This document shows, one piece after another, positions 57,568 through 61,514 of a stretch of 64,000 nt of DNA. The DNA is taken from the NCBI RefSeq assembly GCF_055900595.2, contig NZ_CM148325.1; one strand, written 5' to 3'. The stretch's first letter is position 1, and each line of letters opens with the position of its first letter. The translations under genes were made by a program, and so were the position numbers. Below the pieces are notes generated by a model. The model was not told where the DNA came from and searched no databases. It saw nothing but the letters and a program-made list of their open reading frames with translations.

Positions 57568-58986
57568 TTATTTCCCCTTCCTCGCCGCCTCATACGCTGC
57601 CAACGTTCGTACTCTCGCTTCTTTGTGATCGACTATCGGTTGCGGATAATCCAGCGTCACACCTGATTTATCTGCCCACTTCCACGGTTCATGCACCGCT
57701 TTCCCTGGTACATCGCGCAACTCTGGTAGCCACCGGCGGATAAACTCACCTTCGTGGTCAAATTTCTCGCCCTGAGTTGTCGGATTGAAAATACGGAAAT
57801 ACGGTGCAGCATCGGTTCCAGTAGAAGCCGCCCATTGCCAGCCACCGTTATTGGCTGCCAAATCACCATCAATCAGTTGCGACATGAAATATCGCTCGCC
57901 TTCCCGCCAGTCGATCAGCAAATCTTTCACCAGAAAACTGGCAGTAATCATCCGCAGGCGATTATGCATCCAGCCAGTGCTGTTAAGCTGACGCATGGCC
58001 GCATCAACAATCGGGTATCCCGTTTTGCCTTCCTGCCAGGCCTTTAAATGCGCGGGATTACTTTGCCACTGTACGCGATCGGTCCAGGCAATAAAGGGGC
58101 GATGCTTACACAGTGACGGGTGATACGTCATCAAATGACGGTAGAACTCGCGCCAGATCAGCTCATTAAGCCAGACGCTACCAGCCCCGCCATCCAGCGC
58201 TTGCGGCTGTTCCGCCAACAGGCGATGCAGACACTGGCGAGGCGATAACCTACCCGTTGCAAGGCTTGCAGACAAACGGCTGGTGCCTTCCACTGCCGGA
58301 AAATCACGCTGCTGATCGTACTGACTCGCACCGTTCTGGCAAAACTGGCGTAATTGCGCAATCGCCGCTTTTTCTTCCACCGGGAAATGCGCGGTATCGA
58401 AAGACTGACGAGGGTAATTCAGCGTAATAGATGGCGCGGGATCTAATGATCCGCTACTCCGAACTTTTGGCGCAGCGACGCACTCCGGCATCCCTTCCCG
58501 CAGCCGTTTCAGCCAGGCATTCTTAAAAGGCGTAAAGACTTTGTACATCTCATGATTGCCAGTCATCACCGCCCCCGGCGGCAGGATCACGCTGTCATCG
58601 AACCCTTCACACACCACGTTACTCAGCGCTCTTTCAACTTCCACATCCCGCGCCCGCTCATTCACCTCATACTGATAGTTATAAAACAGATGGGTAACAC
58701 GATTTTCCGCGCACACCTGTTTAACTATTTCGACGCTGGCGGCAAAGTCATCCACTTCATGAAACAGCAAAGGAATACCTTTTTCCGCCAGCGCGTTTTG
58801 CAGCGCATTAAGTTGTGTATTGATAAGTTCAGCCTGACGCGGCGACACATTATGCGCCGCCCACTGGCGTGGTGTAGCGATATACAACGCCAGCACGCGT
58901 GCAGACGAATTGCGGCAGGCGGCAGCAAGCGCGAGATTGTCGTGCAGACGTAAATCCTGGCGAAACCAGACCAGATGGGTAGTCAT
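57568..58986 (-). CDS. phr: deoxyribodipyrimidine photolyase
   Basis: 472 aa ORF matching remembered Phr/PhrB (MTTHLVWFRQDLRLHDNLAL...). Confidence 0.9.
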   Translation of the reverse strand: MTTHLVWFRQDLRLHDNLALAAACRNSSARVLALYIATPRQWAAHNVSPRQAELINTQLNALQNALAEKGIPLLFHEVDDFAASVEIVKQVCAENRVTHLFYNYQYEVNERARDVEVERALSNVVCEGFDDSVILPPGAVMTGNHEMYKVFTPFKNAWLKRLREGMPECVAAPKVRSSGSLDPAPSITLNYPRQSFDTAHFPVEEKAAIAQLRQFCQNGASQYDQQRDFPAVEGTSRLSASLATGRLSPRQCLHRLLAEQPQALDGGAGSVWLNELIWREFYRHLMTYHPSLCKHRPFIAWTDRVQWQSNPAHLKAWQEGKTGYPIVDAAMRQLNSTGWMHNRLRMITASFLVKDLLIDWREGERYFMSQLIDGDLAANNGGWQWAASTGTDAAPYFRIFNPTTQGEKFDHEGEFIRRWLPELRDVPGKAVHEPWKWADKSGVTLDYPQPIVDHKEARVRTLAAYEAARKGK

Positions 58987-59492
58987 AAAACTCCTGCATG
59001 GCGCAAGTTAATCACCCGCGGCCAAAGTTCGAAATAACGCTGCCCTGAAAGCCAGGCGTCAGGATAAAGCGCCATATAGTGTTTGATACGCATCAGCGGC
59101 GCAAGAAGCGGTTGCTCGCCACGGCGATAACTGTCGATAAGCGACGCCAGCTGCTGGCGTTCTGTGGAATCAATATGTGGGCGAAAATATCCCTGAACGT
59201 GCATCAAAACGTTAGTATGATCACGCCGGTTGGCAGGGTGAGAAAGCAAAACAATTACGCGTTGACGGTACTGGTTGTAATAGTCATCCAGATTTTGCCA
59301 CTGGTGAATATCAGCCACAAACGGGCCAAGTTTGCGGTATTCCGGCTGGGAATGAGCCAGAAAGACGAGTTTATAGCGGCTGTGATAATCGTTGAGCGCC
59401 CCGCGCGTTAGCCCATGTTCTTTCAGTCGATGTAACTCATGAAGGGCGAAGATACGGATTAGGGTGCTTTCATCAAATCGTTGCTGATTCAT
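58983..59492 (-). CDS. ybgA: DUF1722-family protein YbgA
   Basis: 169 aa ORF overlapping the phr start (ybgA-phr operon). Confidence 0.85.
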   Translation of the reverse strand: MNQQRFDESTLIRIFALHELHRLKEHGLTRGALNDYHSRYKLVFLAHSQPEYRKLGPFVADIHQWQNLDDYYNQYRQRVIVLLSHPANRRDHTNVLMHVQGYFRPHIDSTERQQLASLIDSYRRGEQPLLAPLMRIKHYMALYPDAWLSGQRYFELWPRVINLRHAGVL

Positions 59493-59576
59493 TACTGCTC
59501 CTGAACGGTTTACAGGAGTAAGTGTAGACGGCAGTATTGAAAAAACGAAACGAATAAATGAATTCGGTAAAGAAAT

Positions 59577-59984
59577 TCAATTATTCATAATAAAGTTCAT
59601 AGTAGCGATAAATAGTTTCTTTTCTTCATCACTCATGGCAGCAACGTTTAACATGTTGTCATCAAAATTATTGATGTTATTTTTTAATTTCAGTAACTGC
59701 AAAGGAGAAAAATAGTCACTCCCGATGAGATTACTCAATACCAGCAATAGCTCCCCATCATATAAATAGCCCACCATAAGATTAATCTCTATCATCTCAA
59801 TTGCTTTTTGTACAGCAAGCGCCGGTAAGATATTCTGACGAAGCATTTTGGCAATATCATTTTCATCCAGTTCATCGGGTGTTTTATCTAATAAAGAATT
59901 ATACCAGTTTATTAAACCACTTTTGAAAGCGAACGAATCATATTGCAGGTGATAAATCTGTTTTAGGGTTTCTTTATTTTTCAA
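59577..59984 (-). CDS. hypothetical small protein (135 aa from a TTG start), AT-rich
   Basis: ORF with a TTG start (first ATG would give about 89 aa); markedly AT-rich; acidic, Asn/Leu-rich; no known motif. Confidence 0.35.
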   Translation of the reverse strand: MKNKETLKQIYHLQYDSFAFKSGLINWYNSLLDKTPDELDENDIAKMLRQNILPALAVQKAIEMIEINLMVGYLYDGELLLVLSNLIGSDYFSPLQLLKLKNNINNFDDNMLNVAAMSDEEKKLFIATMNFIMNN

Positions 59985-60026
59985 TTTATAGTGCCTTTAT
60001 TTGCTATAATTTTTTCTGAAATAACA

Positions 60027-60494
60027 TCAGCGAGTTTGCTCAGGTGCAGGGATGACCGAAATTGTCATGTATTTTTTCAGTCTGGCTTCTCGTTTCACAC
60101 CTTTCGGATCTGAACCAAAAGGAAGCGTCAAGCATGGTGAGTCAACGGTTTGGATTGTCCAGAGAGAATCACCAATGAATCTGAAATTGATGCTATCCGC
60201 TGTAACGGATAATCCCTCAAAACTTCCCGTCGCATACTCATTACCCAAACGTACGGTCTCTTTAACTCCATCGTTAACATCGATAAGGACAATTGTCAGT
60301 GATTCCTCAAAAATAACGTCATCCGTCAGAAAAAGGATATAACGCTGGTCATTAACCTGAATTGCCGCTTCCAGTATTTGCCCTGGTACAATAATACCTG
60401 TGTTATTGCCATTGAGCACAACGTCAGACTGAGCCTGAGATAAATCAGTCGCTTTGTGAACCTTGACCAACGATATCGAATTAACCTGTTGCAT
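60027..60494 (-). CDS. hypothetical protein (about 155 aa), AT-rich, immunity-protein-like context
   Basis: ATG at 60494 lies 2 nt after the stop of the upstream glycine-zipper reading frame; the ORF track extends it to a GTG at 60587 in a way that would overlap that frame. Confidence 0.4.
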   Translation of the reverse strand: MQQVNSISLVKVHKATDLSQAQSDVVLNGNNTGIIVPGQILEAAIQVNDQRYILFLTDDVIFEESLTIVLIDVNDGVKETVRLGNEYATGSFEGLSVTADSINFRFIGDSLWTIQTVDSPCLTLPFGSDPKGVKREARLKKYMTISVIPAPEQTR

Positions 60495-60496
60495 AA

Positions 60497-60637
60497 TCAA
60501 TTCCACAAGCGCCCCATTTCCCATGCGGCAAGTGCACCGCCGACAAAGCCGCCAATAAGTACGCAAACAGGTGCTCCTGGACCACACATCAATCCGGTCA
60601 ACGCACCGCCTGCGACAGCACCGGCAATAATATTCAT
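60497..60637 (-). CDS. 46-codon glycine-zipper reading frame (possible toxin C-terminal remnant or small membrane peptide)
   Basis: Manual translation MNIIAGAVAGGALTGLMCGPGAPVCVLIGGFVGGALAAWEMGRLWN*; no good Shine-Dalgarno; in-frame sequence upstream runs 35 codons to a stop with no other ATG. Confidence 0.25.
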   Translation of the reverse strand: MNIIAGAVAGGALTGLMCGPGAPVCVLIGGFVGGALAAWEMGRLWN

Positions 60638-60820
60638 CCGGGTACGACTGCCAGTGGTTTTAACAGATTTACGCTCACCGTTACGTATCCTGCCACCACT
60701 CAGGTTGCAGACGCGGCAGTCACAGCCTTGACGGTGTTGAAACTAAAGTTCAGGTGATAGTCTGATGTTCATAGTTTGAGCATTATCCCCTGACAGAATA
60801 AAATCAAGCAGTGTCAATGA

Positions 60821-61078
60821 TCACGTGTATATATCATTTAAAGCATTATCAAGCCAATCTTCCATGTTTTTAATTTTAGCCCGCGCATATAAATCATTCA
60901 TAACATCCTCATAACTCTGCCCATCATTGACCATACAATTAGCTGTATGAGGCAGAACATGTATAAAATCAGACAATATAAAACAAGCCTTTGAATTTCC
61001 AGAGTTAGCTGCAATTCTGATATCAATCAATCCTCTGGCAATCAATTTAAGAATAACATCTTGCATTTTAATTTCCAT
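60821..61078 (-). CDS. hypothetical small protein (85 aa), AT-rich
   Basis: ATG-initiated ORF in the AT-rich array; no recognisable motif. Confidence 0.35.
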   Translation of the reverse strand: MEIKMQDVILKLIARGLIDIRIAANSGNSKACFILSDFIHVLPHTANCMVNDGQSYEDVMNDLYARAKIKNMEDWLDNALNDIYT

Positions 61079-61160: not shown

Positions 61161-61514
61161 TCAAAAATATACATCATCAGCTTCTTCCGAAAACTCCATG
61201 GCTCCTAAGGCACCTAAATCAATACTAAATATAGTATCACTTTCCTTAGCACTCCCAACATAGATAAAATAGCCTAAATCTCCGTCTTGACCTATCAAAA
61301 AATAGTCAGGTTCCACTTGTTGAATATCATATGTTTCATTTCTTTCAATAAGATCAGAATAGTTATATAAATATAATGTTTCGTGCTTCTTATTAGTTAT
61401 TTCATAGGTCTCACTATCTTTAATTTCTTCTATCAAAAAATGTTTATACACTGGAGGAAACTTGATTGACATGTCAAATTCAATTTTATTTATATATTCT
61501 ATAATTTTATTCAT
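61161..61514 (-). CDS. hypothetical small acidic protein (117 aa), AT-rich
   Basis: ATG-initiated ORF; acidic, Tyr/Glu/Asp-rich, reminiscent of immunity-type proteins; no recognisable motif. Confidence 0.4.
   Translation of the reverse strand: MNKIIEYINKIEFDMSIKFPPVYKHFLIEEIKDSETYEITNKKHETLYLYNYSDLIERNETYDIQQVEPDYFLIGQDGDLGYFIYVGSAKESDTIFSIDLGALGAMEFSEEADDVYF

Follow-up and report, generated by a model that had tools for sequence, protein, structure and literature searches.

Pore-forming effectors delivered by type VI secretion (T6SS) depolarise cells (PMC6889166, PMC13133200). [quoted passage not shown] The immunity proteins Sip6, Sip4, and Tki5, which protect against T6SS pore-formers, are all membrane proteins (PMC6889166, PMC12669606, PMC13133200). 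Depolarisation of membranes is also the activity of the glycine-zipper toxins EsxX (PMC12744356) and TelE (PMC10434224). EsxX, of the S. aureus T7SS, is neutralised by the soluble cytoplasmic ExiAB, which sequesters the zipper, and the orphan immunities against it are the membrane proteins ExiCD (PMC12744356). In Tde1 of Agrobacterium an N-terminal glycine zipper is needed for translocation, and its GxxxG repeats permeabilise the target membrane (PMC10240207). For islands that hold immunity genes on their own, the orphan immunities of Serratia Rhs loci are a precedent (PMC10539506).

The locus described here belongs to E. coli and occupies the short interval between ybfA and ybgA, adjoining kdpFA; it was analysed within a stretch of 64,000 nt of contig NZ_CM148325.1 (assembly GCF_055900595.2), referred to as a whole as the window. 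In K-12, rhsC is found at this position. With good confidence, we read the locus as the stub of a T6SS effector gene truncated by an insertion sequence, followed by a probable orphan immunity gene. The features to which the text refers are these:

59577..59984, minus strand: CdiI_3-family orphan immunity gene, directly downstream of the partner gene (Pfam PF18616, 63.8 bits, E 1.5e-17)
60020..60829, no strand assigned: extra 810-bp block holding the IS remnant, the toxin stub, and the partner gene (blastn against Ecol_316, L015)
60027..60494, minus strand: 155-aa partner gene, WP_001188052.1, a probable orphan immunity gene (homology, linkage, AF2 model, pI)
60497..60637, minus strand: 46-codon chimeric ORF, with codons 1-3 from an IS630 transposase fragment and codons 4-46 from the C-terminal end of a putative toxin gene
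60497..60629, minus strand: 3' remnant (codons ~198-240 plus stop) of a 240-codon putative effector gene (blastn and alignment A1)
60627..60706, minus strand: internal fragment of an IS630-family transposase (~aa 181-207 of 345), fused in frame and holding the ATG (86% nt identity to Serratia pQE31, L013:1498-1577)
60707..60747, minus strand: 41-nt filler between the two IS pieces, carrying the in-frame stop at 60745-60743 (no match in L013)
60748..60834, minus strand: IS630-family left end together with transposase codons 1-9, MNIRLSPEL (86% nt identity to L013:905-991, 88% to ISEc40, L014:908-941)
60821..61078, minus strand: 85-aa ORF, clipped at its 3' end by the insertion (94 aa in Ecol_316; blastn)
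61161..61514, minus strand: 117-aa ORF resembling SUKH/SMI1_KNR4, probably an orphan immunity gene (Pfam PF09346 at 22.5 bits against a cut-off of 25.4, E 1.9e-4)

The 46-codon ORF begins with an ATG at 60637, encodes the peptide MNIIAGAVAGGALTGLMCGPGAPVCVLIGGFVGGALAAWEMGRLWN, and ends with a TGA at 60499-60497, after which the letters 'TT' separate it from the ATG of the 155-aa ORF at 60494-60492. An initial annotation, made from the sequence, had described a 46-codon frame ending 2 nt before the next ATG, and both features were found as it stated, on the minus strand. It had also pointed to a glycine-zipper pattern, which is borne out by five GxxxG motifs in 46 residues and by homology to a family of zipper proteins. 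Upstream of 60637 the same frame stays open for 35 codons, the number given in that annotation, up to the stop now located at 60745-60743, with no other in-frame ATG, GTG, or TTG between that stop and the ATG. Its remark that no convincing ribosome-binding site is present agrees with the absence of any Shine-Dalgarno-like run in the 20 nt 5' of the ATG (…CACTGGCAGTCGTACCCGG), and a promoter scan gave nothing above the expectation from shuffled sequence. The G+C content of the ORF is 55%, against 29-43% in the neighbouring genes of the island, and a chance ORF in a GC-rich patch had been named as the outcome that would overturn the original suggestion. In protein searches, residues 4-46 matched 78-88-aa fragments of a conserved family at E values of 1e-17 to 1e-18, and by this match the ORF is judged to be more than chance. 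Searching with the extended frame returned two groups of proteins, the first being 46-aa ORFs with one or two residue differences and the second being proteins of 74-141 aa from Enterobacter, Cronobacter, Pantoea, and Kosakonia. The latter match the query almost exclusively at its C-terminal ~31-43 residues, and their upstream parts are conserved among one another.

The intact relatives of this peptide are proteins of about 240 aa. The homologue in Kosakonia sacchari and in one metagenome contig is split into two ORFs in different frames, and joining these ORFs produced a 240-aa query that retrieved 619 database proteins, most of them also about 240 aa long, from Kosakonia, Serratia, Leclercia, Enterobacter, Pantoea, Cronobacter, Pectobacterium, Salmonella, and other hosts. 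An alignment of 16 family members (A1) revealed two conserved parts, a helical N-terminal part (190 residues in the intact parents) and a C-terminal part in which a hydrophobic helix precedes a glycine-zipper hairpin with the invariant turn GL-CGPGAPVC. Residues 4-46 of our ORF align to A1 positions 198-240, with both the GGFVGG zipper and the GL-CGPGAPVC turn present, and from the CGPGAPVC turn to the C-terminus the window peptide is 100% identical to Enterobacter members. At the nucleotide level, the window is 84% identical to an Enterobacter locus (L009:10591-11177) from 60629 to 60043, that is, through the 155-aa gene, and its 96-97% identity to E. albertii (L022/L023) sets in at exactly 60629. 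The remnant at 60497..60629 comprises most of the last helical hairpin, including its invariant turn. The N-domain (positions 1-150) and the first hydrophobic helix are missing from the window, in which IS630-derived DNA takes the place of codons 1-197, so that 82% of the parent protein is lost. Because codons 1-197 are absent, the window copy is a pseudogene fragment and not a member gene of the family.

The family is large. An exhaustive profile search returned 959 clusters at 50% identity, 213 of them at E <= 1e-30, and a scan of one genome per species found relatives in 136 genomes of the Gamma-, Beta-, and Alphaproteobacteria. Most relatives measure 230-530 aa; among the best 150 representatives only P0405, with 1,360 aa, exceeds 531 aa, and in this protein the family domain is N-terminal (residues 6-228) with an Endonuclea_NS_2 nuclease at the C-terminus. 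The 619 relatives carry the database names "hypothetical" or "glycine zipper family protein" and no Pfam domain. The effector had no match in Pfam, NCBIfam, PADLOC, or PDB sequences, and against PHROGs it had only weak low-complexity matches to membrane segments of tape-measure and tail-lysin proteins. Its AF2 model was weak (pLDDT 62), and a fold search with that model found no match to a solved fold at E <= 0.001. The predicted pI is 9.5. A literature search for the motif strings of the family yielded nothing relevant, and the 240-aa family is without a curated Pfam or NCBIfam model and without a published description that we could find.

The suggestion in the initial annotation that the frame is the severed C-terminal tip of a larger toxin fits these relatives well, since the intact homologues are 240 aa long and a longer copy exists at the E. 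albertii locus. The comparison set that it proposed (Rhs, CdiA, and microcin C-termini) was not where the parent lay, which would be a small stand-alone or PAAR-fused T6SS effector. That the stub derives instead from a class II microcin or bacteriocin with a double-glycine leader, or from an Rhs/CdiA C-terminal toxin, we consider extremely unlikely, the homology mapping having already refuted it. The peptide does match Pfam Bacteriocin_IIc (PF10439) weakly, at 20.5 bits and E 4.6e-4, an 'LSGG' string occurs upstream of the ORF, and the locus occupies the rhsC position of K-12, but the score lies below the gathering score of 27.1 and drops to 12.3 bits for the C-terminal half of the full-length protein, and the intact parents, at 240 aa, possess a helical N-domain. 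Even P0405, at 1,360 aa, carries no Rhs or CdiA domain by Pfam. A decayed double-glycine leader (MNIRLSPEL…LSGG) was rejected as a candidate, both strings mapping to the IS630 transposase. An Rhs/CdiA tip was rejected because the intact relatives are 240 aa long; the DNA upstream is IS630-derived.

The junction between the toxin gene and the IS630 element lies at 60627-60629. Searches of plasmids with tblastn placed the residues around the start of the ORF, LSGGRIRNGERKSVKTTGSRTRMNII, in the middle of IS630-family transposases, and the IS630 identity of 60627..60706 is also backed by tblastn matches to IS630/ISEc40 transposases and by a PGAP pseudogene call. Since the IS630 homology covers 60706-60627, the ATG at 60637 lies within transposase-derived DNA. 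In L013 the segments matching the two IS pieces are separated by 506 nt, and about 506 nt are missing in the window. Of the element only 87 nt and 80 nt are left, the right half is absent, and neither the transposase nor the pair of ends is intact. In 11 RefSeq genomes PGAP labels 60584-60703 a pseudogene, namely a partial 'IS630 family transposase', and in 2 genomes it calls the 46-aa ORF as a hypothetical protein (WP_157943798.1). The transposase call overruns the truly IS-derived segment, 60627-60706, by about 45 nt into the toxin remnant and so masks the 46-aa ORF as well as the toxin stub. Both PGAP labels miss the nature of the ORF.

These observations bear on whether the ORF could be a genuine small membrane-peptide gene, the alternative offered by the initial annotation, for example a residual mini-toxin or a leader that drives the partner gene. 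The frame is open and has an ATG, it encodes a nearly complete helical hairpin with the five GxxxG motifs, the 2-nt stop-start spacing would allow coupling to a partner whose own Shine-Dalgarno sequence is weak, and PGAP calls it as a CDS in two genomes. On the other side, the ATG is an accident of the IS630 fragment, neither a Shine-Dalgarno sequence nor a promoter above chance accompanies it, 82% of the parent is missing, and the ORF is limited to the lineage with one particular deletion. We regard a translated gene in its own right as very unlikely, and the ORF is best read from its sequence as a pseudogene stub and not a gene of its own. The stub is most likely inert. At most, its translation could possibly help to start the partner gene by coupling, and it may have been retained for that reason.

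The sequence shows the history of the locus, which begins with an ancestral cassette, situated between the 94-aa ORF and the CdiI_3 gene, of a 240-codon effector, 2 nt, and a 155-codon partner. Insertion of an IS630-family element followed by deletions removed effector codons 1-197, and the remaining 43 codons were joined in frame to part of the interior of the transposase gene, which by chance supplied an ATG. Homology to Ecol_316 stops at 60019 and resumes at 60830, delimiting the 810-bp block; the order in Ecol_316 is SUKH-like gene, 94-aa gene, and CdiI_3, and this arrangement without the block is the commoner one in E. coli. The insertion clipped the 94-aa gene to the 85-aa ORF, the C-terminus changing from NDIELNQKNHSK to NDIYT. 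The 85-aa ORF has no family match and may, by its position, be another orphan immunity gene. No toxin genes stand alongside the CdiI_3 gene (59577-59984) or the SUKH-like gene (61161-61514), and together with the 155-aa gene these line up between ybgA and ybfA as a short series of orphan immunity-type genes. Among 5,426 complete E. coli genomes, 13 carry the 810-bp block, the toxin gene is broken at the same nucleotide in all 13, and blastn found no intact toxin gene in any of the 5,426.

At the same locus in E. albertii, toxin codons ~46-240 are kept and the gene is cut by an IS1 (100% match to IS1A) at contig ends, which supplies the longer homologue at this locus in other strains that had been proposed as a check. 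The break in E. coli was caused by IS630 and that in E. albertii by IS1, and nearly identical alleles have thus been inactivated twice by different insertion sequences. The stubs of the window and of E. albertii differ at 7 sites, and the window differs from E. coli 2020CK-00188 at 9 positions, 7 of them in the stub. All of the stub substitutions (5 synonymous and 2 not) fall within 60575-60620, no more than about 50 nt from the IS junction, a cluster that looks like a short gene-conversion tract. Over the whole segment from 58782 to 60629, which takes in CdiI_3, ybgA, and the beginning of phr, this E. coli matches E. albertii (L022/L023) at 96-97% identity. This seems higher than expected between the two species and suggests a recent interspecies exchange of the region.

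Toxin loss beside a retained partner is found in other genera as well. In Kosakonia, the effector gene contains a poly-A run at codons ~99-101 (…GCGCAAAAAATGAAG…; L003:7995-8005 and L004:320-330) that is A7 in one genome and A5 in one read assembly, both out of frame, whereas A6 is in frame, and the other Kosakonia copies of the effector are in frame. These variants are due either to sequencing errors in the homopolymer or to slippage by which the toxin is turned off. On another contig (L005), an unrelated frameshift falls at nearly the same codon, and in all three cases (L003, L004, and L005) an intact partner is kept beside the frameshifted effector. Enterobacter also has effector stubs of 78-83 aa, and the longest contigs carrying them are the same size as those listed for the 155-aa partner proteins.

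The link of the family to T6SS comes from gene fusions and from gene neighbourhoods. In Marinobacter (L055), a 411-aa protein has an N-terminal PAAR domain (Pfam PAAR_motif, 62 bits) and a C-terminal toxin domain and is followed by the partner, and the top-scoring representative in the exhaustive search, P0280, is likewise a PAAR fusion (NCBIfam T6SS_PAAR_dom, 143 bits, cut-off 124). The domain order in P0405 is opposite to that of these PAAR fusions. The effector-partner pair lies inside T6SS core clusters in three metagenome contigs (L019-L021) and three genomes (L077, L078, and L084), each with the gene order tssB-tssC-(pair)-tagJ-tssE-tssF-tssG-clpV. In Salmonella the pair is within 10 kb of Hcp-VgrG, and the island there encodes Hcp, VgrG, a DUF2169-linked toxin accompanied by CdiI, and DUF3289/DUF943, the last of which has been proposed as a T6SS effector-immunity pair (PMC11148199). 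In this Salmonella locus the partner gene is succeeded by a 154-aa ORF (L016:11419-11883) that contains two CxxC pairs and is unrelated to the partner in sequence. In Pectobacterium, a PAAR protein, a Pyocin_S/Ntox28 protein, and CdiI_3 lie a few kb downstream of the pair, a layout paralleled in the window by the CdiI_3 gene right after the partner. The PAAR fusions, together with the loci in T6SS core clusters or beside Hcp/VgrG/PAAR islands, make it very likely, as judged from homology and gene context, that the parent would be a T6SS effector.

A tblastn query panel detected T6SS genes within 10 kb at 10 of 80 loci, and the 2.3-kb ybfA-ybgA island itself holds no PAAR, VgrG, Hcp, or T6SS core gene. 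Placement often far from T6SS genes and among variable neighbours is also seen for the cargo effectors Ssp6 and Ssp4 (PMC6889166, PMC12669606). Most pairs are found on mobile islands bearing integrases, Pox_D5 primases, or restriction-modification genes, and AlpA and BREX-like genes also occur on the islands of many copies. In a scan of same-strand ORFs, the commonest upstream neighbour was a Pox_D5/D5_N/Toprim primase (5 of the 138 neighbours scanned), and several copies of the pair adjoin smpB or integrase genes (L024, L006, and other Enterobacterales loci); from such neighbours it follows that primase-bearing integrative islands are frequent carriers of the cassette. A module acting inside the cell, as a toxin-antitoxin or abortive-infection (anti-phage) system spread by mobile islands, would fit this cargo and the 70 of 80 loci without a nearby T6SS gene. 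The PAAR fusions and the placement in T6SS core clusters are hard to fit to such a module, and no PADLOC match was obtained, and we consider it very unlikely.

The pairing of effector and partner is close. The partner is directly downstream of the toxin gene in 77 of 80 scanned loci, and in every locus for which the gene list was read the next gene after the effector encodes a 150-165-aa homologue of the 155-aa ORF. The gap between the two genes is 2 nt in every Enterobacterales locus read except Salmonella L016, in which, as in the metagenome loci, it is 5-12 nt. The window protein is 42% identical to the Kosakonia partner and 33% identical to a metagenome-contig partner, and it has no match in Pfam, NCBIfam, PADLOC, or PDB sequences. 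Its AlphaFold model is a confident one (pLDDT 85.9, pTM 0.84), all-beta with 12 strands resembling three propeller blades, and it resembled no specific solved protein. The protein is acidic, with a pI of 4.7 as opposed to 9.5 for the effector, and soluble, with no signal peptide, no transmembrane segment, and no membrane helix in the model. The 468 nt of the gene are 100% identical among the window, E. albertii, and E. coli 2020CK-00188, and a dN/dS comparison with E. albertii accordingly had zero differences to work with; such identity across species indicates recent transfer and does not demonstrate purifying selection.

The initial annotation had proposed that the tightly linked downstream ORF is the immunity gene of the toxin. 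The linkage was confirmed and extended to a constant partnership (the 77 of 80 loci), and the immunity role is one that we infer from context. Tight pairing, opposite charges, retention beside dead toxins, and a place among orphan immunity genes all point in this direction, and the partner is probably the immunity protein of the effector. The main rival, because cytoplasmic immunity is unusual and the orphan genes in the EsxX system encode membrane immunities, is that the partner acts in the cytoplasm as a chaperone or adaptor, keeping the hydrophobic effector soluble before it is loaded into the T6SS, and that the E. coli copy is a functionless leftover still awaiting decay. The partner is indeed soluble and all-beta in its model, with no membrane or periplasmic targeting; soluble zipper binders of EsxX can serve self-protection only, with membrane proteins immunising against incoming toxin (PMC12744356); and the identity of the gene between species marks a young locus. 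We consider this chaperone role unlikely.

A mechanism can be sketched for the pair. The hydrophobic helix and glycine-zipper hairpin of the effector would insert in the inner membrane of the target cell and dissipate the membrane potential, and by analogy with the toxins described above we consider insertion and depolarisation of this kind moderately likely. The acidic, soluble, all-beta partner would neutralise the toxin, probably by binding it on the cytoplasmic side, and the intact E. coli partner would then serve as orphan immunity against Enterobacter, Cronobacter, Pantoea, and Kosakonia that carry the effector. The fullest form of this proposal, a widespread and undescribed T6SS toxin domain with a cytoplasmic immunity protein that is all-beta and like an incomplete propeller, of which the E. 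coli and E. albertii copies are working orphan immunities, is put forward only tentatively. The layout of P0405 is a hint of a possible further role for the zipper module, in inserting into membranes or in translocation.

For annotation, the 46-codon ORF should be labelled as a toxin pseudogene fragment in place of "hypothetical protein" or "IS630 family transposase", and the 155-aa gene as a candidate orphan immunity gene. There is nothing out of the ordinary in an IS-truncated toxin stub lying next to an orphan immunity gene on a variable island; the interest of this stub is that it leads to a large T6SS effector and partner family for which Pfam and NCBIfam hold no curated model. A soluble immunity protein against a membrane-active toxin would be unusual and, if confirmed, would constitute a new type of effector-immunity pair. 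Confirmation would also explain why some E. coli keep the 155-aa gene, as protection against the T6SS of other gut Enterobacterales.

Among the known systems, the family can be set beside Ssp6, which is also a small stand-alone effector spread through the Enterobacterales with its immunity gene directly downstream, often far from T6SS genes and sometimes in the cluster next to tssC. The two differ in their immunity proteins, Sip6 being very small with two transmembrane helices and the partner here a 155-aa soluble protein predicted to be beta. In Serratia sp. FGI94, an Ssp6-like gene lies at 3.02 Mb and the family member P0045 has the locus tag D781_0105, which suggests, from coordinates and sizes, that the two are different genes. 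Ssp6, Ssp4, and Tke5 were set aside as the parent on the basis of size and immunity type. Tse4, Tse5-CT, the Tme proteins, Ssp4, and VasX/Tke5 share with our effector T6SS delivery, a proposed depolarising action, and hydrophobic or glycine-rich helices, but they differ in length and family, and the effector gave no NCBIfam or Pfam match.

EsxX and TelE have a C-terminal glycine-zipper domain as the depolarising toxin, as is proposed for the effector, and EsxX also has a soluble partner, although both are Gram-positive LXG/T7SS toxins and are likened to our family by description and not by sequence. The soluble partner here is unlike Sip6, Sip4, and Tki5 and, if its role is as proposed, would parallel the action of ExiAB on EsxX. 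With Tde1, the likeness is confined to P0405, in which the module is N-terminal and the nuclease C-terminal, an arrangement that leaves room for the zipper to act in translocation as it does in Tde1; in the PAAR fusions and the 240-aa proteins, by contrast, the zipper is C-terminal, the usual position of the toxin, and no enzymatic domain was detected. Finally, like the Rhs and CDI islands, our locus holds an intact immunity-type gene without a working toxin, in a row with CdiI_3 and SUKH orphans on a variable island, but whereas in those islands Rhs C-termini are displaced, here the stub would be that of a small cargo effector left by IS insertion and deletion.
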